From NCBI RefSeq assembly GCF_019464535.1, contig NZ_CP080507.1, forward strand, positions 3,690,001 to 3,722,000: 32,000 nucleotides of DNA, in the 5' to 3' direction. The notes under the pieces were generated by a model. It was not told the DNA's origin. It was given only the letters and a program-made list of their open reading frames with translations, and did not search any database. This DNA is from Horticoccus luteus (GTDB lineage Bacteria; Verrucomicrobiota; Verrucomicrobiia; Opitutales; Opitutaceae). Shown piece after piece: positions 3,993 to 32,000 of this stretch; position 1 is the first letter of the stretch, and each line of letters starts with the position of its first letter. A program made the translations under genes and the position numbers.

Positions 3993-4252
3993 AATGAAAA
4001 ACGCCGCGTTTGTGGTGATGATCCGGACCGCCGGCGGCAGACGGCGGTTGAATCGAAAAGAAAGGGGTCTCGTGAGCGTGCGCCCCTCCGCCCCAAGCGC
4101 AAGCCCGCCGCGCAACCATCGCCCGCTCCTGCGCCTTCATCGCGGTTTCTGGCGGACCCTACCGCCTTCACGGCAACGACCTTGCCCATTCTGATGACGG
4201 TCTTGCGGGAGCCGCGCCCAGGCAAATCCCCCTGCGCGGCCTCGTCATCGCG

Positions 4253-24883: not shown

Positions 24884-26113
24884 ATGAATCTGCTTTCGCC
24901 GCATCCTTTCTGGCCGTGGCAGGACGGCCTGCCGGCGAACTTCCCCGCCCTCGAGCGCAACATCACCTGCGACGTCGCCGTGCTCGGCGCCGGCGTCACC
25001 GGCGCCCTCGTCGCGTGGCACCTCGCCGACGCCGGCTTCGATGTGGTCGTCCTCGACGCCCACGAAGCCGCGCACGGCAGCACCGCCGGCACCACGAGCC
25101 TTCTGCAATACGAAATCGACGAACCGCTGCACCGCCTCGCGCACACGTTTGGCGCGCCGTTTGCCACGCGCTGTTACCGCCGCTGCGATGCCGCGCTCGA
25201 TGGCATCGCGCGCCTCGTGCGCACCCTCAAGCTCTCATGCGACTTCGAGCGCAAATCCAGCCTCCTCCTCGCCAGCACCGCTGCGCACGTCCCGCGACTC
25301 CGCCGCGAATTCGAGGCCCGGCACGCCGCCGGCTTCGACGTCGAGTGGTGGTCGCGCTCCATCCTCGCCCGCCGCAGCACCCTCCCGCAACCGGCCGCCC
25401 TCCTCTCCGCGCGCGCCGCGCAAATGGACGCCTACCGTTTCACCTACGGCCTCCTCCAAGCCGCGCAACAACGCGGCGCGCGCATCTTTGATCGCACTCC
25501 CGTGCAACGCCCCCGCGTGCATCGCCGCGGCGCCGACCTGCGCACAGCCGCCGGCGTCCGCGTGCGCGCCCGCGAAGTCGTCGTCGCGACCGGTTATGCC
25601 GCCGACGCCTGGCTTCCCGAGCGCGCGACCGCGTTGCACAGCACCTACGCGCTCGCCAGCGAACCGTTGACGCAATTCGCCGGCTGGCCCGCCGACCGCT
25701 GCCTCATCTGGGAAACGCGCCGCCCATATTGTTACCTCCGCACCGCCCCCGACGGCCGCGTCATCATGGGCGGCTACGATGAACCCTTTCGCGATCCCGC
25801 TGCGCGCGACCGCCTCCTGCCCGCCAAGACGGCCGCGCTGCGCCGACGCTTCGCGCAACTATTTCCCGCGCTCCCTCCGCTCACCGTCGCGACGTCGTGG
25901 GCGGGCACCTTTGGCGAAACGCCCCACGGCCTCCCGCTCATCGGCCGGCATCCCGACCGCCCCCGTCTGTGGTTCGCGATCGGCTACGGCGGCAACGGCA
26001 TCACGTTCAGCCTGATCGCCGCCGAGATCATCCGCGCCGCGATGCTCGGCGACCCCGACCCCGACGCCCCCCTCTTCGGCTTCGACCGCCGGCCCGTCGC
26101 CGCGCGTCCCTAA
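24884..26113 (+). CDS. FAD-dependent oxidoreductase (DAO family), paralogue of the neighbouring Rieske fusion but lacking the Rieske domain
   Basis: VAVLGAGVTGALVAW motif. Its N-terminal segments, including a shared CDF motif, look similar by eye to the 23191-24702 product (alignment not run). Ends GYGGNGITFS. Confidence 0.8.
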   Translation: MNLLSPHPFWPWQDGLPANFPALERNITCDVAVLGAGVTGALVAWHLADAGFDVVVLDAHEAAHGSTAGTTSLLQYEIDEPLHRLAHTFGAPFATRCYRRCDAALDGIARLVRTLKLSCDFERKSSLLLASTAAHVPRLRREFEARHAAGFDVEWWSRSILARRSTLPQPAALLSARAAQMDAYRFTYGLLQAAQQRGARIFDRTPVQRPRVHRRGADLRTAAGVRVRAREVVVATGYAADAWLPERATALHSTYALASEPLTQFAGWPADRCLIWETRRPYCYLRTAPDGRVIMGGYDEPFRDPAARDRLLPAKTAALRRRFAQLFPALPPLTVATSWAGTFGETPHGLPLIGRHPDRPRLWFAIGYGGNGITFSLIAAEIIRAAMLGDPDPDAPLFGFDRRPVAARP

Positions 26114-26340
26114 CCCTCGCCGCCTGGCCTCAGTCTGCGCCAGTCGCGTAGCGGAATTGCGTCAGCATTTCGTCCATCCCGAATGAAAACGCTCCGCTCG
26201 CCCATACAGAAAGAGCTTACCCAAGCTGGGCAAGTATTGATACTCCGCGCGTTGTGTGCATGCCTATTCCCATGAACCCCGTTCGGGTAAGGCAATCGGG
26301 TAAGGGTGAATAACACTGATCGGCTGAAGAAAGTTCTCCC

Positions 26341-26577
26341 ATGGTGCTCCCGAAGGAACGCGCCAAGATTTTCCTCCTGCTTTTGGGAGTCGTCGTCGGG
26401 CTTTACGGTTTGTTCCTGCTCAGCCCATTTCGAAGCAAAGAAGACGGCGGTCCCAAGTATCAGAAGGGAATGTATGCAGAAGCAGCGGCTAGTGGTGCCT
26501 TGGAAGATTTTGCTCCGTGGATGATCGGGATAGGAGGAGCGGCGTTGTTTGGTGCCTACCTGCTTCGCGAGCGATGA
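26341..26577 (+). CDS. Small membrane protein with two predicted TM helices
   Basis: 78 aa. Hydrophobic IFLLLLGVVVGLYGLFLL and MIGIGGAALFGAYLL. Lower-GC codon usage than the core. A terminator-like hairpin follows. Confidence 0.45.
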   Translation: MVLPKERAKIFLLLLGVVVGLYGLFLLSPFRSKEDGGPKYQKGMYAEAAASGALEDFAPWMIGIGGAALFGAYLLRER

Positions 26578-26616
26578 AGAGCGCCGATCCAGTCGCCACA
26601 GCGCAACGCGGGCAGC

Positions 26617-26640
26617 CGTCCGTCTTCGGACGTTTCGTTC
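26617..26640 (+). terminator. Rho-independent terminator candidate
   Basis: cgtccg (26617-26622) / cggacg (26627-26632) stem with tctt loop, followed by tttcgtt. Confidence 0.45.
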
Positions 26641-26702
26641 GCATTCGAAACTCCGTCCTCGGTCGGCCCGCGTGGCTGAGCTGAATCGTTCGGCAGAAAG
26701 AA

Positions 26703-27083
26703 ATGAGCGCTGAACAAGTCATTCTCGTGGTCGACCGGATGTATGGCAGCAAGATCGTTGATCTGCCCGCGTCCGCAGCCCTCTGGATCGTCGATTCACC
26801 GGCAAATCAGCCATTCATCTCAGAAGTGAAGAAGAAGTTTACGCCGGCGGTTCGAGGCGATCTCAGCTGGTTTAAGGACTCCCCACAGCTCTCGCCCGCA
26901 AGTCTCGCAGCTCAAAAGATTGATACGATAGAAGATCACCACGGCGAGTATTCGCAGCATCCGGCCTATTCTCGCCTTACGATCATCGGCACATCTCCGG
27001 ACGGAGAGTTGTGTGCCCTTCTCGAAAAGGACGGCTTCAAGCTCACATTGTCGAACGACCGGGAGATCGAATTCGAACGATGA
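26703..27083 (+). CDS. Hypothetical cassette-like protein (126 aa)
   Basis: Clean ATG ORF with balanced amino-acid composition in the low-GC island. The stop is immediately followed by repeat/hairpin copy 1. Confidence 0.5.
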   Translation: MSAEQVILVVDRMYGSKIVDLPASAALWIVDSPANQPFISEVKKKFTPAVRGDLSWFKDSPQLSPASLAAQKIDTIEDHHGEYSQHPAYSRLTIIGTSPDGELCALLEKDGFKLTLSNDREIEFER

Positions 27084-27322
27084 AGACGCCCAACTCTGAG
27101 CGTTCAACTCTGAGCGTTCTGCTGCGCCGTAGCGCGCAGCGGGACGCGGGTTGAACAAGCCCGTTTCGAAGGCAGCAGGAGCTCCGGCCACCGCTTATGC
27201 GTTTTGTAGTGGCCGCCAATCGTTGGCGGACGCAGCGCCGGACGGCGACCGCCTTCGCCGGTTGCAGGCGCGCGTGCCGGCGGTGTCCGTTTTCGCCTGC
27301 CGAGAGAGCGCCCACCGCCGTC
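27084..27322. repeat. Copy 1 of island repeat: attC-like hairpin site (27088-27156, with 14-bp tandem duplication) plus GC-rich module
   Basis: Aligns by eye with 29779-30054 and 31032-31304. It contains caactctgagcgtt twice in tandem (27091-27104, 27105-27118), a hairpin at 27119-27142, and GGTTGAACAAG at 27149-27159. Confidence 0.8.
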
Positions 27323-27364
27323 AGGGCCGCGATCCGCCGCGCGGCGGAGCGCACGGCCCACCCG

Positions 27365-27520
27365 CAAACCGTCGACGCCGGTGCAATCGAGCGCGGCCGG
27401 ACCGCCGCCGTTGCGCGCCGCCATCTGGCGGACAAACCGCAGATACTCGGCCTGCGTCGCGGCCGCCAGCAAACGCAGCCGCATCGTCTCCGCTAAACGC
27501 TGCACCGACTCCGGATCGGG
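27365..27520 (-). pseudogene. N-terminal fragment of a tyrosine recombinase (phage-integrase SAM-like N-domain), truncated
   Basis: Minus-strand translation ESVQRLAETMRLRLLAAATQAEYLRFVRQMAARNGGGPAALDCTGVDGL follows the MRLR.L...T...Y...VR.....G..P..L pattern of integrase N-termini, including those encoded next to some IS91-family transposases. Downstream it fuses to the GC-rich repeat and loses protein-like character. Confidence 0.3.
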
Positions 27521-27751
27521 CGCGGCGATCTTCTGGCGCCACCCCGGAGGGTGGACGCATGCGTGGACTCTCTTCCCGTCGTTTTTGATTTAGGCATAGA
27601 CCCGCAGCCTTGCCATCCACCGCCCTCCCGCCCATCCTTCCGCTCGTGCCCCCCCCGCACTATATACACCCGCTCACCCGCGTCGCGCAGCCGCTTGGTT
27701 CAACCAGTCGGCACAGACAACTCCAGGGCTTCGCCTCTCCGTGTCCGACTA

Positions 27752-28162
27752 ATGGCGCTCGGCCAAAATATGAATCGTGGCCTTGTCGATCTATTGAAGC
27801 AGCTTCCTGACGACGTGACAGTTGTCGTTGAGCTATACCGCGCGCTATTCAGTGGGCGCTTCTGGGTATTGGCACAGCACACCGACCACTTTCACGCGAC
27901 GCAGTTTTTGACTTATCCGGCAGCGGATGGTGCCCGCGAGCTTCCAGTTTTCACAAGTGCGGATCGCGAGCTCTTGGTCGATCTTCATCGCCAAGTTTCA
28001 GCGGCGGAAGTTCGAGAAGTCGATGGCCGGACTCTTTGGCCGCGCCTCATTGATGTGTTGGATTCCGATACTTTCGTGGCTGTCGATGCTGCCGAGAAGC
28101 ATGGCATTCGACTTTCGAAGGCGATGATCATGGGCTTCGTGAAGTTACACGGCGAGCGATGA
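27752..28162 (+). CDS. SseB-like family protein
   Basis: MALGQNMNRGLVDLLKQL..., with FWVLAQH ... DGARELPVFTSADREL ... FVAVDAAEKHGIRL resembling the SseB N-terminal domain pattern. ATGA overlap with the next gene. Confidence 0.5.
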   Translation: MALGQNMNRGLVDLLKQLPDDVTVVVELYRALFSGRFWVLAQHTDHFHATQFLTYPAADGARELPVFTSADRELLVDLHRQVSAAEVREVDGRTLWPRLIDVLDSDTFVAVDAAEKHGIRLSKAMIMGFVKLHGER

Positions 28163-28605
28163 AAAGGCCGAACTCGGAGCGTTCTAGGCAAAGCCTATGC
28201 TCCGTTGTTTTTCTGCTGTTAGCTCTCGCTGGAGGAGGGTGCACGACGCCGCTAAGCTCTCCCCTCTCGGTGAAGTCGCCCGAGCTTGGGTTTGACCCAA
28301 AGTGGAAAGCGCACAGCGAGTATATAAACCGTATTGCGCAACAGGTACAGTCCGAATGGGAACGTCTTCTGGTAACAAACAAGATTTATCCTCCTTCGGA
28401 CTCAAAGGTCGTGGTTGTTTTCGTGATGAACGCAGAAGGAAAAATTACGCGCATCAAGCAAGTGAAGAATGAATCATCCAGGGAAGGGGCGATAGCGTGT
28501 CTTTCAGCGATCATTAACCCAGCACCATACGGGAAATGGTCAGACGCGATGAAAGCGCTCTTGGGAGAAGAGCAGGAGGTGACTTTTACTTTCGTATACC
28601 AATAA
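28159..28605 (+). CDS. Lipoprotein with TonB-C-like C-terminal region
   Basis: Signal peptide with lipobox LLALAGGGC. The start codon and first 9 codons (MKRPNSERS) are encoded by the conserved island motif AAAAGGCCGAACTCGGAGCGTTCT. Confidence 0.6.
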   Translation: MKRPNSERSRQSLCSVVFLLLALAGGGCTTPLSSPLSVKSPELGFDPKWKAHSEYINRIAQQVQSEWERLLVTNKIYPPSDSKVVVVFVMNAEGKITRIKQVKNESSREGAIACLSAIINPAPYGKWSDAMKALLGEEQEVTFTFVYQ

Positions 28606-28815
28606 GAGAAAGCTTAAACCGCAGAGAACCGCTAAGACCGGAGAAAGGGAAAGCCGCGCGTCCTGACTCTTGACCACCGAAGCGAATACATTTGTCCTTA
28701 GTTCCGATTGCCTCGGCTACACGCGATGTCTTGGAGATCGGCGCTCTTCGAGCATAACCTGCATCGCCGGAGACGAGCACTCTCTTCGCTGTTCGCTCCG
28801 TCATCGCAGCTATAA
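28606..28815 (-). mobile_element. IS110-family-derived intergenic unit A (internally deleted copy of unit B)
   Basis: 28741-28815 aligns with 29291-29365, tcggctacacgc with tcggttacacgc, and cctgactcttgaccaccgaagcgaat with ccttgactcttgacaaacaaagcgaat. About 200 bp is missing relative to unit B. Confidence 0.5.
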
Positions 28816-28830
28816 GGTCTTGGGAAAACA

Positions 28831-28992
28831 ATGCATCGCGCTACCCTACTCATCATACTTACAATAAGCGCAGCTTTCCTGTCTGCGTGCGTTGAAATCT
28901 CGAGCTATAGTCTAGCTCAGACGAATTCAGGCTACCTGCTTACCGTGCGCAGGGACTACAAAGGGATCAGCTTTGGGATGGCAGAGACCTAA
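28831..28992 (+). CDS. Small putative lipoprotein (53 aa; below the ORF-track cutoff)
   Basis: My translation: MHRATLLIILTISAAFLSACVEISSYSLAQTNSGYLLTVRRDYKGISFGMAET, with lipobox LSAC and stop TAA at 28990-28992. Confidence 0.35.
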   Translation: MHRATLLIILTISAAFLSACVEISSYSLAQTNSGYLLTVRRDYKGISFGMAET

Positions 28993-29234
28993 AACCGCAC
29001 GCCTTGACTCTTGACAAACAAAGCGAATTGCGGGCACCCACGCCCAAGCTCGACGAGAGACGTTCGCATTGCTCGCGTTATCCGGATCTTGCGCAGCGTC
29101 TTCTCCAAGACCCACAGGTCTGAACTCACCTGTCTATACACGCGCAACTCGCCTTCGCGGCTGCCTTCGGTTGTCGCTATTGTGATTGTATCTTTATGGA
29201 CATCCAGGCGCACATATCTTTGCTTGAGCTTCAT
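28989..29234 (-). pseudogene. IS110-family transposase N-terminal fragment (DEDD domain start), truncated and decayed
   Basis: MKLKQRYVRLDVHKDTITIATTEGSREGELRVYRQVSSDLWVLEKTLRKI matches the IS110-family N-terminus (G.DVHKD.I.VA ... G ... L.KL). Only about 80 aa remain, and the EAGPCG region is degenerate. Confidence 0.55.
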
Positions 29235-29365
29235 GGGCTTGTCCTTGGTTTTGGTTGTTTCGGTTACACGCCACACCCCGGCGGATCTGCGCTCTTCGAG
29301 CGTAACCCGCGTTCACCAAGGACAAGCACCCTCTTCGCTTTCCGCTCCTTCATCGCAGCTATAAT
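29235..29365 (-). mobile_element. Non-coding left-end remnant of the IS110-family element (unit B)
   Basis: 130 bp upstream of the transposase-fragment ATG. Its distal 75 bp is repeated at 28741-28815. It contains a possible stem gggttacgc / gcgt(g)taacc, and ends in TATAAT (29360-29365 on plus). Confidence 0.4.
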
Positions 29366-29376
29366 GCCTCTGCAAA

Positions 29377-29814
29377 ATGAAACAGACCTCGCCGTTTGCG
29401 GTTACATTCCTCATGGCAGTCGCTGTGTTGTTCACCGGCTGTGCTCAGACCTACAAAGCATCGCTATTCATCGTAGACGATTGGGCACCGGGGAAGAATC
29501 CAACCCCCGAAATTATCGCGGATCCGGTCGGCGGCTACATTTGGGGCGCTCTATTGCGATCAGATAAGTTTTGGGTCCAGCACATCAGCAACTATTTTGT
29601 CGATCCTTCGGAGGTCATGAAGATTCGCCAGGGACTCACGGTGGATTGGTCCAAAGGAAAGGTGATGGGTCCTTACCAAACGACCGAGATCACGATTTCC
29701 CTTCACTATGGTCACGAATCCGCGTTCGAAGCGATTTACCGCGCGTTGCGAGACTACCATGCGCCTATACTCGCAGTTAAAAGGCCGAACTCTGAGCGTT
29801 CTGCTGCGCCGTAG
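29377..29814 (+). CDS. Lipoprotein (145 aa)
   Basis: Signal peptide with lipobox LFTGC. The C-terminal VKRPNSERSAAP is read through the island hairpin site. Confidence 0.6.
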   Translation: MKQTSPFAVTFLMAVAVLFTGCAQTYKASLFIVDDWAPGKNPTPEIIADPVGGYIWGALLRSDKFWVQHISNYFVDPSEVMKIRQGLTVDWSKGKVMGPYQTTEITISLHYGHESAFEAIYRALRDYHAPILAVKRPNSERSAAP

Positions 29815-30054
29815 CGCGCAGCGGGACGCGGGTTGAACAAGCCCGTTTCGAAGGCGTCCGCGGTTCCGACCGCCGCTTATGCGCTTTGTAGTGGCCGCTC
29901 ACCGCCGACGGGCGGAGCGCCGGACGGCGGCATCCTTCGCCGGTCGCGGGCGCGCGTGCCGGTGGCGTCCGTTTTCGTCCGCCGAGAGGGCGTCCGCCGC
30001 CCGTCGCCGGGGCCGGGAGCCGTCTTTCTGCCCCGGCGGCCAAGGCTGCCGCCG
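29779..30054. repeat. Copy 2 of island repeat: attC-like hairpin site (29784-29838) plus GC-rich module, contiguous with the IS91 transposase fragment
   Basis: Aligns with copies 1 and 3. GCCGAAC at 29784-29790, hairpin at 29799-29827, GGTTGAACAAG at 29831-29841. Confidence 0.8.
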
Positions 30055-30109
30055 GCAACACGGGGCGCGGGTTGCAATAATATAATAAGTTGGTCCCTGG
30101 TCCTTATAC

Positions 30110-30412
30110 TCATCGCGTGCAGAGGGGCGGCGCCCGGGCCTGCCGCGGCAGCGTGCCCACGCGCACGAGCGTGAAGCGTTCGCAGTGCGGGCAGCGCAAG
30201 TGCCAGCGCGGCGCCTCCGGCGGCGGTTCCGCGAGCACGATCGGCTTTCGCAGCACCGTCTCCACCATCATCCGGCGGCCCTGCGCCGCCGGGTACAGCC
30301 AGCCGAAGTAACGCACGCGATGCTGGCCGGCCGGCGGCACGTGCTGCAAATACCGCCGCAGGAACTCTTCGGCGCCGAGCACGCAGCGTTTCCGCTGCCG
30401 CCTGCGGGTGTC
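30110..30412 (-). pseudogene. IS91-family (Y2 HUH) transposase C-terminal fragment
   Basis: EEFLRRYLQHVPPAGQHRVRYFGWL ... CPHCERF matches the conserved C-terminal EFIRRFLLHVLP.GF.RIRHYG ... CP.C region of IS91-family transposases. The frame is cut by a stop at 30419-30421, inside the motif GGTTCAACAAG (30416-30426). Confidence 0.6.
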
Positions 30413-30530
30413 CGTGGTTCAACAAGTGTCCAGAGCCAATGTTGGGGCTGCGCCTCGCCAAGGCGCGTCTTTAACGCCTAGCCGCAAAGCCTCTTGCTCC
30501 GATGCCCGATTGGCCTATCGTTCCGTCACC

Positions 30531-30746
30531 ATGAGCATCGTTGAGTTACGTAAGCTTCCTGCCGAAGAGAAGTTGAGGATCATCGAAGCGTTGTGGGGCG
30601 ATGTTGCCGCAGATGACGAAGCGTTTCAGAGCCCGGCGTGGCACGAAGCTGAATTGCGGAAGACGGAGGTCGATCTGGCTGCTGGTCGGATTGAGATTCT
30701 GGATTGGGAAGATGCGAAGAAAGAGCTGCGGAAACGTGTCGAATGA
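30531..30746 (+). CDS. Type II antitoxin, putative addiction-module component family
   Basis: MSIVELRKLPAEEKLRIIEALWGDV ... AWHEAELRKTEVDLAAGR ... WEDAKKELRK matches the recalled pattern of the putative addiction-module component antitoxin family (TIGR02574, accession from memory). ATGA overlap with the toxin gene. Confidence 0.7.
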   Translation: MSIVELRKLPAEEKLRIIEALWGDVAADDEAFQSPAWHEAELRKTEVDLAAGRIEILDWEDAKKELRKRVE

Positions 30747-31048
30747 GAGTTCGAGTTCTCCGGCCAGCGCTCGAGGATATTGCGAGCGGCCGTCAGTTCT
30801 ACGACGCGCGCGCTCTCGGTGTTGGCGATTACTTTTTCGACAGCATCTTTTCGGAGATTGATTCGCTCGTGCTCTACGCCGGAACCCATCGTATTTGTTT
30901 CGGCTTTCAACGCCTTCTGGCGAGGCGTTTTCCGTTTGCGATTTATTACCGAGTGACTGCCGGCGAGGCTGTGGTTTTCCGTGTTCTGGATTGTCGGCGA
31001 GATCCGAACTGGATTCGCAGCGCGCTTGAGAAAAAGGCCGAACTCTGA
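30743..31048 (+). CDS. Type II toxin, ParE/RelE family
   Basis: MRVRVLRPALEDIASGRQFY ... RFPFAIYYRVTAGEAVVFRVLDCRRDP is the typical ParE/RelE core. The stop lies inside the island motif. Confidence 0.7.
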   Translation: MRVRVLRPALEDIASGRQFYDARALGVGDYFFDSIFSEIDSLVLYAGTHRICFGFQRLLARRFPFAIYYRVTAGEAVVFRVLDCRRDPNWIRSALEKKAEL

Positions 31049-31304
31049 GCGTCCTGCTGCGCCGTAGCGCGCAGCAGGATACGGGTTGAACAAGCCCGTT
31101 TCGAAGGCAGCGGCAGCGTCGTCCGCCGCTTTTGCGTTTTGTAGTGGCCGCCAACTGTCGGCGGACGCAGCGCCGGGCGGCGACCGCATTCGCCGGTCGC
31201 GGGCGCGCGTGCCGGTGGCGTCCGTTTTCGTCCGCCGAGAGGGCGTCCGCCGCCCGTCGCCGGGGTCGCGAGCCTTGCGTCCGTCGCGGCCAAGGCTGCC
31301 GCCG
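31032..31304. repeat. Copy 3 of island repeat: attC-like hairpin site (31037-31091, perfect 11-bp stem) plus GC-rich module
   Basis: Aligns with copies 1 and 2. Stem tcctgctgcgc (31052-31062) / gcgcagcagga (31069-31079). GGTTGAACAAG at 31084-31094. Confidence 0.8.
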
Positions 31305-31484
31305 AGAAAGCTAAACCGTAGTAACCTGACTTCCGAAACTCAAAGGCGAGTTGGGTAAGAACACTCGTCCTGCGGTAAAATGACGGGCGCGTTGGCCGAA
31401 TCGGTTGGGAGGCGTAACGTGAGCGCAGAGTGTTTGACGCGCCTCGGGCGTTCTTCCGAACCGCGCACCTTCCTTTCCAAAGCC

Positions 31485-31736
31485 GTGAAAAAGTCATTCA
31501 AAGTTGGCGACCATGTCTCGTGGAATTCCGAGGCCGGTCGGGTGCGGGGCGTGATCAAAAAACGGGTCACTGCCCCGATGGCCTTCAAAGGTTATACCGT
31601 GCGCGCTTCCGCCGACGAGCCGCAGTATTTGATCGCGAGCGACAAGACGGATCACCTCGCGATGCACAAGGGCGCCGCATTGCGCAAACTCGCTGCCCAA
31701 CGAAAGACGACCCATGGCCGCTCCTCGCGAACCTAA
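31485..31736 (+). CDS. DUF2945-like (hypervirulence-associated Tudor-like) small protein
   Basis: From GTG 31485: KKSFKVGDHVSWNSEAGRVRGVIKKRVT ... YTVRASADEPQYLIASDKTDHLAMHKGAALRKL matches the DUF2945 pattern. The track's upstream extension from 31380 is unlikely to be coding. Confidence 0.55.
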   Translation: MKKSFKVGDHVSWNSEAGRVRGVIKKRVTAPMAFKGYTVRASADEPQYLIASDKTDHLAMHKGAALRKLAAQRKTTHGRSSRT

Positions 31737-32000
31737 AGCGAAAGCACGGGCGCGAGAATCGAAGTCCATCGCGGCCGTGGACCCCGTCACCGTTCGGCCC
31801 GACGTCTACACGATCGGCCATTCCATCCGTGCCATCGACGAATTCATCTCACTGCTCCAAGCGCATGGCGTCACTTGCCTCGTCGACATTCGCACGGTGC
31901 CGCGCTCGCGGCACAACCCCCAGTTCAACCGCGACACCCTGCCCCTTTCGCTGACCGAAGCGCACATCGGCTATCGGCACTGCCCCGCGCTCGGCGGACT
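31714..32000 (+). CDS. DUF488 family protein (3' end beyond window; open ORF not in track)
   Basis: My translation from ATG 31714: MAAPREPKAKA...VYTIGHSIRAIDEFISLLQAHGVTCLVDIRTVPRSRHNPQFNRDTL...IGYRHCPALGG. This matches DUF488 conserved blocks (TIGHS, LVDVR..P.SR.NP.FN, LGG). Confidence 0.65.
   Translation, partial: MAAPREPKAKARARESKSIAAVDPVTVRPDVYTIGHSIRAIDEFISLLQAHGVTCLVDIRTVPRSRHNPQFNRDTLPLSLTEAHIGYRHCPALGG

Follow-up and report, generated by a model that had tools for sequence, protein, structure and literature searches.

The window, a stretch of 32,000 nucleotides (nt) of Horticoccus luteus (NZ_CP080507.1, positions 3,690,001 to 3,722,000), carries from 26.3 kb to at least 31.3 kb a degraded array of integron-type gene cassettes without an integron integrase gene (intI), i.e. 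an array resembling a CALIN (cluster of attC sites lacking an integrase). Small unrelated open reading frames (ORFs), a toxin-antitoxin (TA) pair among them, lie on the same strand, as the original prediction for this DNA had it, and three near-identical hairpin sites are located at 27088-27156, 29784-29838 and 31037-31091. Re-reading of the sequence confirmed these coordinates, and the ORF list confirmed that all three sites start at or within the stop region of a plus-strand ORF. The sites had been taken for short attC recombination sites. The comparisons given here indicate instead, with a probability of about 85%, that each is the junction between a genuine attC, represented by its R'' box, and the oriIS end of a decayed insertion sequence (IS) of the IS91 family, and not an attC itself. 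The opening RYYYAAC-like box (GCCCAAC or GCCGAAC) stands as a genuine attC R'' core, related arrays adjoining an integron integrase, while the hairpin and GTTGAAC, formerly read as L boxes and R', would be the first nucleotides of an IS91-family element inserted after the AAC of R''.

All three sites share one layout: an A-rich stretch, GCC(C/G)AAC-TCTGA, a 14-bp stem with the 6-nt loop CGTAGC, GG and GTTGAAC. The stem arms occupy 27114-27127/27134-27147 (copy 1), 29796-29809/29816-29829 (copy 2) and 31049-31062/31069-31082 (copy 3). Loop size and flanks (TCTGA versus GG) are as first described; the stem is longer than the 9-11 bp given then. It contains two T.G pairs and no bulged base. A hairpin covariance model (R1) built from 26 related sites scores the copies at 94.0, 98.8 and 88.6 bits (E ~1e-25 to 1e-28); used as an array finder it returned few further copies, because the core of the model had been fixed by the search pattern. 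Only stem pair 32-63 is truly compensatory among the 26 sites. In copy 3, one change per arm does make both T.G pairs Watson-Crick (pairs 35-60 and 37-58), as had been noticed, and two of its outer stem pairs are weakened. The T.G pairs are kept in 25/26 and 23/26 sites and become C.A mismatches on the bottom strand. Predicted folding favors the top strand in copy 1 (-20.2 versus -18.4 kcal/mol) and copy 2 (-16.2 versus -14.1 kcal/mol), the opposite of what is expected of an attC.

Each site opens a direct repeat of ~260 nt (family D1; 27097-27355, 29779-30037 and 31032-31290), of which it takes up 55-69 nt and whose GC-rich DNA follows every site. Copy 1 additionally contains a 14-nt tandem duplication (27095-27108), and a fourth, partial copy without a hairpin occurs at 28162-28185 (family D5). 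The stop codon of a 126-aa ORF lies 5 nt before the box of copy 1, a 145-aa ORF runs into the hairpin loop of copy 2 (...KRPNSERSAAP, stop) and the toxin ORF stops in the CTCTGA of copy 3. Unrelated cassette proteins share the acquired C-terminal tail ...(P/A/F)N(S/H)E(R/G/S)SAAP in the window (29377-29814) and in the related loci L005, L009, L010, L011, L018, L021, L022 and L023: translation in their frames passes R'', enters the IS hairpin and terminates at the TAG of the hairpin loop. Other cassette frames stop at TAA in R'', at TGA in CTCTGA or at TGA in GGTTGAAC, the box that closes the hairpin module.

Hairpins placed directly after ORFs on the coding strand, with conserved T.G pairs that would be G.U in RNA and with a second small stem (CGGG...CCCG) plus TTT 3' of the main hairpin, could be repetitive extragenic palindrome (REP)-like elements or intrinsic terminators, selected at gene 3' ends and without any part in DNA mobility; a free-standing palindrome in L025, where no ORF ends, also suits the REP alternative. 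The main stem is not directly followed by a T-run, though. IS91 sequences accompany 27 of 36 copies, many copies are found at the ends of contigs, as is usual for multicopy mobile DNA, and the same arrays contain junctions without a hairpin. Several upstream ORFs that read into the hairpin point to insertion rather than to a selected terminator. No Rfam family was matched at the gathering threshold, and an E-value search of 26000-32000 gave a chance miRNA match only. We regard this explanation as highly improbable.

The assignment to the IS91 family comes from the DNA behind the hairpins. An exact-match scan with a 22-nt hairpin core, one genome per species, yielded 27 loci, almost all in Opitutae or other Verrucomicrobia metagenome-assembled genomes (MAGs) and many of them at contig ends; the locus in Turneriella (L012) was set aside as a chance match within coding sequence. 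In 7 of the 27 an IS91 transposase gene ends ~120-560 nt from the hairpin, always antisense to the site and with its 3' end facing the hairpin. The full transposases of L021 and L016 match the IS91 transposase model NF033538 (E 4.6e-104 and 5e-109), and that of L021 comprises the domains Zn_Tnp_IS91 (PF14319) and Y2_Tnp. A start of the AAGCCCG type follows the hairpin in 30 of 36 copies. Attachment to an IS91-like module, which the original prediction had named as evidence against attC sites, was found in 3/3 copies in the window and in 27/36 across related loci.

Full elements (L021, L016) also possess a tyrosine recombinase gene upstream of the transposase. Its best NCBIfam match is the model "integron integrase" (TIGR02249), with 159-170 bits in two stretches against a cut-off of 265, and ~27 residues are missing at the insertion of VchIntIA (2a3v; chain 175-246 skipped versus query 225-269). 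By score and by insertion the protein is not an IntI; its sequence assigns it to an integron-like subgroup lacking the IntI-specific insertion, in which tyrosine recombinases of IS91 elements have been placed before (Smyshlyaev et al., 10.1101/542381). The complete 4.32-Mb genome of Horticoccus luteus encodes three such IS-borne recombinases (P0008, P0010 and P0012), with 86-87% identity to that of L021.

At the other end, the terIS terminus ...GCCGC..GCGGCTTNGTTCAAC (GCCGC..GCGGC-TTN-GTTCAAC) is present in 12 loci (the window, L006, L011, L016, L020, L021, L038, L044, L050, L069, L076 and L087), with one-base variants in L006 (...GGTTCAT) and L050 (...GTTCAAT). It is followed by the remainder of an attC, i.e. 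spacer, L'', variable part, L' and R', so that a true attC is interrupted by up to ~2.6 kb of IS. Read on the transposase-sense strand, elements begin with GTTGAACCAAGC and a palindrome and end with ...hairpin...CGCTCAGA^GTTC (window copies 2 and 3) or ^GTTG (copy 1), where ^ here and below marks a boundary; the tetranucleotide abutting oriIS is GTTC in window copies 2 and 3, and otherwise GTTG, GTTA or GTTT. No target-site duplication was seen beyond the shared AAC. The T.G pairs stabilise the hairpin of the plus strand, which is antisense to the transposase and therefore corresponds to the "bottom strand" of IS91. At ~750-850 of L076, a complete IS with its own hairpin module lies directly behind the GGTTAAC end of a solo hairpin module, and the element appears able to target its own GGTTGAAC-type box.

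The same organization recurs beyond the first scan. A metagenome scan with GGTTGAACAAGCCCG returned 120 loci, in which chance coding matches are mixed with real elements. Genomes and metagenomes together provide 46 distinct element ends, all built as RYYYAAC-like box^4-9 nt^hairpin^0-3 nt^GGTTGAAC and divided among at least four hairpin lineages. The hairpin is more stable than z = -2 in 43 of the 46 (median z -4.0). The four bases before AAC are G/A in 83%, C/T in 70%, C/T in 74% and T in 48% of these ends, and many of the boxes are identical to R'' boxes of class 1 integrons (GCATAAC, GTCTAAC, GGCTAAC, GCCTAAC). Wherever the flank allows, a transposase (34-68% identity) and a recombinase are found behind the hairpin in antisense orientation. 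In the other lineages terIS reads GCCGC..AGCGGCTTNGTTCAAC (GTTCAAT in L050); the metagenome terIS ends were read by eye. In L044 and L050, the only loci with a readable flank, terIS is followed by a canonical attC remainder (AAGTC-GGTGGATGCG...GCATCACC-TTTAAC-GTTGTGC in L044). The data point to a subgroup of the IS91 family that would insert specifically behind the attC R'' box in many lineages and habitats, with transposase identities down to ~34%.

Integron arrays with an integrase gene show where the boundary of the IS lies. L038, a 239.6-kb contig reached by a protein search with the IS-borne recombinase, carries an intI of 436 aa (372.8 bits on TIGR02249, cut-off 265, in one stretch, 10-313 of 315) with the IntI-type segment KYQRAGEKWEWQWLFPS, transcribed divergently from a short cassette array. 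The L005 contig retains the N-terminal start of intI only (40% identity to the first ~80 aa of the L038 IntI), and in L135 an IntI-like gene (49% identity to the L038 IntI over 313 aa) lies ~7 kb upstream. In the window (to 32000), tblastn with the L038 IntI and the L021 recombinase detected just the IS-borne fragment 27386-27645; the intI that the original prediction proposed to look for is absent here and present beside the related arrays of L038 and L005.

The L038 array opens with the attI-side core GAATAACACTG^TTCGGC. Two of its junctions lack a hairpin: TCCGAAC^AAGTC-GCCAGAGCC...GGCTCATC-TTTAAC-GTTCGGC (junction A) and GCCGAAC^CAGGC-GCCAGAGCC...GGCTCATC-TCTGAC-GTTGGGC (junction B). The third starts with GCCCAAC, after which an insert extends from TCGGAGGG, the hairpin and GGTTGAACAAG through the IS91 transposase and recombinase genes to GCGGCTTGGTTCAAC, and it resumes with CAGCC-GCCAGAGCC...TTTGAC-GTAAGCA. 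The IS, hairpin included, therefore sits between R'' and the rest of an ordinary junction repeat. L005 is laid out as intI start, GAATAACACTG^TTGGGC, two hairpin-less attCs (attC1 and attC2) and a third R'' box with the IS behind it. The 5' start of a cassette is complementary to its own R'' in L038 (TTCGGC/GCCGAAC, TTGGGC/GCCCAAC) and in L005 (TTGGGC/GCCCAAC, ATCGCC/GGCGATC). In the window, R'' GCCGATC (26583-26589) is the exact complement of the cassette 1 start ATCGGC (26319-26324), and cassettes 2 and 3 match at 6/7 positions. Without its hairpin module, the attC of L009 folds so that GCCTAAC and GTTAGGC form an R box of 7 bp, with spacers of 9 nt and an L stem; its R', complementary to R'', lies downstream of the IS. 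Opitutae attCs are mostly ~110-130 nt long with 9-nt spacers; a short class of ~62-66 nt exists besides. The window contains one intact attC (26583-26694) and two interrupted ones (27088-27094 plus 27705-27763, and 29784-29790 plus 30424-30482), all in one orientation and each after a small ORF, which are homologous to the junction repeats of L038 and L005, as well as lone R'' boxes at 28167-28173 and 31037-31043.

That the hairpin belongs to the IS is also apparent from the copies themselves. Five Oleiharenicola loci of one genome (L001, L002, L014, L017 and L024) share sequence from the position directly behind N-AAC into the IS and differ upstream. Diverged IS bodies carry diverged hairpins, as in L009 site 2 (GGGTTCACGGGGTCAGGGC/GCCCTGACCCCGTGAC), L016 site B (GTTCTGTG/CACAGGAC) and the metagenome lineages. 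Behind ...AAC the insert always starts with the hairpin module, even where the target is a solo module (L076) or a footprint such as TCTGAGCGTTCAAC (window copy 1, L011, L017 and position 9481 of L038). Nor do all attCs of these integrons have a hairpin: it is absent from L038 junctions A and B, from L005 attC1 and attC2 and from window 26583-26694.

Read as short attCs with R'' GCCNAAC and R' GTTGAAC, the 55-69-bp sites would be substrates of an integron integrase, with the IS91-like module a passenger or a separate insertion. Their layout does recall a class 1 site (GCCTAAC-TCTGAGC-GTTC...GGAC-GCCG-GTTGAAC against GTCTAAC-AATTC-GTTCAAGC...GCTTAAC-TCAAGC-GTTAGAT), they occupy the 3' ends of ORFs of one orientation in arrays whose relatives adjoin intI, and L009 site 1 has a hairpin without an IS body. 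The boxes are only partly complementary, as had already been remarked: GCCNAAC pairs with GTTGAAC through AAC/GTT alone, a fourth pair being available in 16/26 sites. In copy 1, GTTCAAC can pair with GTTGAAC throughout; this GTTCAAC is of the terIS type and ends the 14-nt footprint, which supplies it in L011 and L017 as well, and full pairing is confined to sites with that footprint. The spacers are unequal, 5 nt (TCTGA) versus 2 nt (GG or CG), no extrahelical base interrupts the stem, and the bottom-strand folding proposed as a check came out in favor of the top strand in copies 1 and 2. Eight class 1 attCs, for comparison, consist of R'' (7), spacer (5), L'' (8)...L' (7), spacer (5-6) and R' (7) with one bulged base each, the right spacer being 6 nt in seven of them and 5 nt in arr-3. 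In addition, the hairpin sequence varies with the IS lineage, the same integrons have junction repeats without it, the box that complements R'' as R' is found beyond the IS, and an IS91 body follows the sites as counted above.

Seven class 1 attCs from plasmids were used to build a covariance model for such sites (R2), which detects class 1 attCs left out of its construction at 36-40 bits and native sites of 60-90 nt at 42-62 bits. It gave no match on any hairpin site at E up to 10, and it matches the hairpin-less site L021 241-302 (GGCTAAC-CAGAC-GCTACAGCC...GGCTGATC-TGAAAC-GTTGATC) at 19.7 bits (E 0.016). Taken together, it is very unlikely that the hairpin sites are attCs.

Several points weigh against the reading of the sites as attC-IS junctions. 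R2 is biased to aadA-type sites and misses attCs longer than ~110 nt; its silence on the long Opitutae attCs is uninformative for that reason, and weight is carried only by its silence on the short hairpin sites and by its match in L021. The scans imposed either the hairpin core or GGTTGAACAAGCCCG, and the parse of the 46 ends required AAC, so conservation of these motifs is in part built in, and only the four bases before AAC, the terIS ends and the hairpins count as independent evidence. Some hairpins lack an IS body: L009 site 1 leads directly into the attC remainder and L022 into other sequence. By analogy with the IS801 miniatures we take such copies for miniatures or deletion derivatives, though they might also represent an attC variant. 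Finally, the palindrome of L025, GCCAAAC...GTTCGGC, fits none of the models. It is a perfect palindrome of 60 nt (4186-4245) round the same hairpin, AGCCAAAC-TCAGAGCGTT...GGGACGCTCTGA-GTTCGGCT, with neither an ORF ending there nor an IS body present.

A boundary at GGTTGAAC^AAG, with the IS behind an attC-like hairpin and a CAAG/GAAC target, was considered first and dropped, because the hairpin-less junctions of L038 and L005 and the tandem and footprint cases put the boundary after the AAC of R''. A related view treats the ~55-nt module ending in GGTTGAAC as an independent small element or attachment site, at whose GTTSAAC the IS body (AAGCCCG...GCTTG) would enter and leave by its own tyrosine recombinase, solo modules being empty sites. 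Complete copies are indeed flanked by GGTTGAAC(A/C)AG and GGTTCAAC(C/A)AG, the left one always having G and the right one C; the palindromic 7-mer GTTSAAC with its CTTG/CAAG flanks resembles a tyrosine-recombinase core; a recombinase gene is always present; and solo modules occur in L009, in L022 and as the first module of L076. Against this, inserts at the solo module of L076 and at footprints begin with a complete new hairpin module and not with AAGCCCG, hairpins and IS bodies co-diverge, and IS91-family miniatures are known to keep the oriIS end. No IS body joined to R'' without a hairpin was seen, in searches that are biased against such finds. An independent hairpin module seems to us unlikely, if slightly less so than an attC.

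With the hairpins assigned to an IS91-family element, the window can be read part by part. The DAO oxidoreductase gene ends at 26113, and the array starts on the plus strand at 26285-26324 with GGTAAGG repeats and GAATAACACTG followed by ATCGGC, an attI-like first core without an adjoining intI. Cassette 1 is a membrane-like ORF of 78 aa (26341-26577, plus strand, from the ORF list); its homologue in L013 has an R'' box and IS hairpin at the 3' side. The intact, hairpin-less attC of cassette 1 (26583-26694, plus strand) has the architecture of L038 junctions A and B, with R'' GCCGATC, CAGTC, L'' GCCACAGC..., L' GGCTGAGC, TGAATC and R' GTTCGGC. Cassette 2 (26703-27083, plus strand) is the ORF of 126 aa and matches no Pfam family. 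Its R'' GCCCAAC (27088-27094, plus strand), in the position of the boxes before the 46 element ends, is the insertion target of the first IS. A 14-nt footprint or miniature IS, TCTGAGCGTTCAAC (27095-27108, plus strand), joins the first oriIS nucleotides to the last terIS nucleotides; equivalent footprint tandems occur independently in L011, L017 and L038 (9481), the units of L011 and L038 having their own variant sequence.

IS91-family copy 1 (27109-27704, minus strand), recognized by repeat alignment and recombinase match, has an internal deletion and retains both ends. Its oriIS end (27109-27355) comprises the hairpin (27114-27147) and GGTTGAAC, the N-terminal fragment of the tyrosine recombinase (27386-27645) is 70% identical to the N-terminus of the L021 recombinase, and the terIS end ...GCCGCTTGGTTCAAC has its last position at 27704. 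The remainder of the cassette 2 attC, CAGTC GGCACAGACAAC...GTGTCCGAC...R' GCTCGGC (27705-27763, plus strand), is homologous to short hairpin-less attCs (L023, L005 attC2) and to the flanks behind the IS in L020, L021 and L038. Cassette 3 (27770-28162, plus strand) encodes an SseB-like protein (PF07179, E 3.4e-6). It is followed by a collapsed, hairpin-less junction of family D5 (28167-28189, plus strand) that consists of R'' GCCGAAC, the IS-type footprint TCGGAGCGTTC and TAGGC. The n-region of the lipoprotein signal peptide of ORF 28159-28605 (MKRPNSERSRQS...) is encoded by this R'' and footprint (window 28159-28200).

Two IS110-family remnants (28640-29376, minus strand; repeat families D9 and D17) fill the junctions after the ORFs 28159-28605 and 28831-28992, with the end pairs 28650-28687/28772-28828 and 28991-29028/29321-29377. 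The first is an end pair without a gene; the second includes an N-terminal transposase fragment (28989-29276; 60% identity over 53 aa to an IS110-family transposase in L021). Both end in ...CATCGCAGCTATAA(G/T) right before the ATG of the next ORF, a sequence that resembles an outward -10 box, and the same IS110 end precedes cassette ORFs in L021 and L010. The lipoprotein ORF of 145 aa (29377-29814, plus strand, from the ORF list) continues in frame through R'' GCCGAAC (29784-29790, plus strand), the second insertion target by its sequence, into the IS hairpin.

Copy 2 (29791-30423, minus strand), recognized by Pfam Y2_Tnp and tblastn, is also internally deleted. It contains the oriIS hairpin (29796-29829), GGTTGAAC (29831-29838), a GC-rich non-coding module, a C-terminal transposase fragment (30110-30385; PF04986 Y2_Tnp, E 5.5e-9; tblastn, 63% identity to L021 transposase aa 339-425) and a terIS-like end ...GTGGTTCAAC, last position 30423. 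The attC remainder, AAGTG TCCAGAGCCAAT...GCGCGTC TTTAAC with the degenerate R' GCCTAGC (30424-30482, plus strand), is homologous to L009 (AAGTCGCCAGAGCCAAG...TTTAAC GTTAGGC) and to the L038 junctions. The TA cassette (30531-31048, plus strand) is composed of an antitoxin (30531-30746; PF09720 Unstab_antitox, E 9.1e-12) and a toxin-like ORF (30743-31048), in whose end lies the third target, R'' GCCGAAC (31037-31043, plus strand, by sequence). Copy 3 (31044-31300, minus strand), assigned by its repeat family, consists of the oriIS end only, with the hairpin (31049-31082), GGTTGAAC (31084-31091) and the GC-rich module; no terIS end was recognised. All three copies are decayed, two being internal-deletion derivatives with both ends and one an oriIS end. 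Behind copy 3, at ~31345-31378 and before a Hva1_TUDOR ORF (31380-31736), a shortened second array-start motif (GTTGGGTAAGAACACTCGTCC) occurs, which could be a second array start or a rearrangement.

The array-start core GAATAACACTG^(T/A)T(C/G)GGC is present in the window (26285-26324), L038 (~13650-13615, minus strand), L005 (~3850-3815, minus strand), L022 (~880-915), L026 (~3190-3160, minus strand) and L010 (~2775-2745, minus strand). The L038 and L005 cores (GAATAACACTG^TT(C/G)GGC) lie ~130-190 nt from a divergent intI and therefore represent attI by position; no intI was found at the core in the window, L010, L026 and L022. It follows housekeeping genes in the window, L010 and L026 (DAO oxidoreductase, histidine kinase/response regulator, lgt), and the gene upstream of the L022 core was not identified. 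GGTAAGG repeats precede the core in the window, L022 and L010 and are absent in L026, L038 and L005. The L005 contig (JBAZUW010000290.1, 4.4 kb), which combines an integron start with an Opitutae-type IS91 copy, is binned in a Phycisphaerales MAG, which suggests mis-binning or horizontal transfer.

Where and in which orientation the element lies, how its ends are built and which decay products it leaves can be read from the sequences; the mechanism behind them is inferred. The insertion point is directly 3' of the AAC of RYYYAAC, the R'' box of an attC, as read along the top strand of the cassettes, and the genes of the element run against those of the cassettes; on the transposase-sense strand oriIS is followed by the target tetranucleotide 5'-GTTN, and no target duplication is seen, in keeping with the IS91-family rule. 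The hairpin is most probably the imperfect subterminal palindrome of oriIS, and GGTTGAACAAGC just inside it the partner of the terIS terminus GCTTNGTTCAAC. The mobile form is presumably a single-stranded circle of the strand antisense to the transposase, i.e. the plus strand of the window, with the junction ...GGTTCAAC^TCTGAGCG... between the terIS and oriIS termini. In such a circle, terIS and oriIS may fold in the manner of an attC, with GTTCAAC paired to GTTGAAC in an outer helix, and with a small loop and an imperfect stem. Junctions reconstructed for four lineages have one predicted structure (z -3.7 to -6.0), in which GCTTNGTTCAAC and GTTGAACAAGC pair in an outer helix of 11-12 bp, with a loop of 3 nt and the imperfect hairpin as the other parts. 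For the window lineage the predicted folding is -22.5 kcal/mol on the plus strand and -18.4 kcal/mol on its complement, a preference that agrees with the conserved T.G pairs.

The presumed cleavage site, the circle junction, would be positioned at the 3' end of the 5' arm, as AA^C is in a folded attC strand, and the folded top strand of a cassette attC would present the same geometry, the AAC of R'' followed by a spacer or bubble; this equivalence would explain both the target specificity and the antisense orientation. A cut at AAC^ by the HUH transposase and a cut at AA^C by the tyrosine recombinase would look alike at the sequence level, and the cutting may be done by either enzyme or by both. 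One tentative possibility, which we hold to be doubtful, is that the subgroup behaves as a cassette-mimicking transposon, its circle serving as a functional attC analogue for which the element's own IntI-like recombinase, alone or together with the HUH transposase, would carry out the exchange at AA^C between the circle and the folded attC top strand of a cassette. Cassette mimicry, if true, would account for the antisense orientation and the exact insertion point behind R''.

Members of the IS91 family have two different ends, make no target duplication, use the targets 5'-CTTG, 5'-GTTC or 5'-GTCC next to oriIS, carry one or two imperfect subterminal palindromes in oriIS and a palindrome beside the GTTC-type cleavage site of terIS, and have a bottom-strand circle as substrate (PMC13181058). 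The elements described here resemble IS91, IS801 and IS1294 in their HUH/Y2 transposase (Zn_Tnp_IS91 plus Y2_Tnp, equivalog NF033538), and the family generally in the distinct oriIS and terIS, the absence of a target duplication, the tetranucleotide abutting oriIS (here 5'-GTTN), the imperfect subterminal oriIS palindrome and the terIS palindrome beside a GTTC-like cleavage site. Transposable miniatures of IS801 retain the right end (PMC3189936), a pattern into which the window copies fit with their both-end deletions, oriIS-only copy and 14-nt footprint. The subgroup differs by the additional IntI-like tyrosine recombinase gene upstream of the transposase, by a target that is the attC R'' box rather than any GTTC, and by a terIS terminus complementary over 11-12 nt to a motif inside the oriIS hairpin, from which it follows that the circle junction would fold like an attC.

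Site- and orientation-specific insertion into attCs of cassette arrays is shared with IS1111-attC elements and group IIC-attC introns. The latter insert opposite to the cassette orientation (PMC9229058), as the IS91 subgroup does. The machinery is different, an HUH transposase and a tyrosine recombinase here versus a DEDD transposase or a ribozyme with reverse transcriptase. Such elements co-occur: L016 contains a group II intron, and IS110-family remnants occupy cassette junctions in the window. The intron of L016 (~850-1570; RF02001, 117.8 bits, 959-1122) is ORF-less or truncated, antisense to the cassettes and inserted at GGTTCAA^ of a terIS box, which parallels GCGCCTAA^ in the class 1 cassette of L037; its end (TCGGGTAGCCGGGAG...) matches that of the intron at GCGCCTAA^ on plasmid NZ_CP038280 (L037). 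The intron seems to have used the IS terminus in place of an attC R'' box. An IS91-like element, ISShvi3, has been described as "adjacent to an attC site" in a Shewanella integron (PMC9229058), a single descriptive report without analysis of insertion point, hairpin or recombinase.

The true junctions of the window agree with attCs and CALINs as defined by IntegronFinder (PMC4889954) in R''/R' boxes, spacers, L stem and the rule relating cassette start to R'', and in that relatives' arrays adjoin IntI while the window has no intI; the hairpin sites are not these attCs. An IS neighbours 38% of CALINs, and integrons are already on record in Verrucomicrobia (PMC4889954), for which the original prediction knew of no common reports of such arrays. 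Because these integrons, CALINs with IS and IS91-borne IntI-like recombinases are all on record, the attC-array finding as originally given is ordinary, and it is partly mistaken. Our literature search found no description of an attC-specific IS91 subgroup, its insertion point or an attC-like junction; the kind of element, the IS91 family, is known, and its attC-specific targeting is barely documented.

Hairpins that resemble short attCs and stand at attC positions can mislead readers of sequence and hide the split real attC, and the IS-borne recombinase, with its best match to the integron integrase model, is a known source of false intI calls. The insertions also remodel cassette genes, several unrelated proteins ending in ...PNSERSAAP from the IS hairpin, and recombination between IS copies would be expected to break up arrays into integrase-less clusters like that of the window. 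With this subgroup, the mobile elements that target attCs, IS1111-attC elements and group IIC-attC introns, would gain a third class, and the subgroup offers a testable role for the tyrosine recombinase of these IS91-subgroup elements. If cassette mimicry were true, the closest relatives of integron integrases would already act on folded single-stranded DNA inside integrons, which would bear directly on the origin of the integron recombination system.

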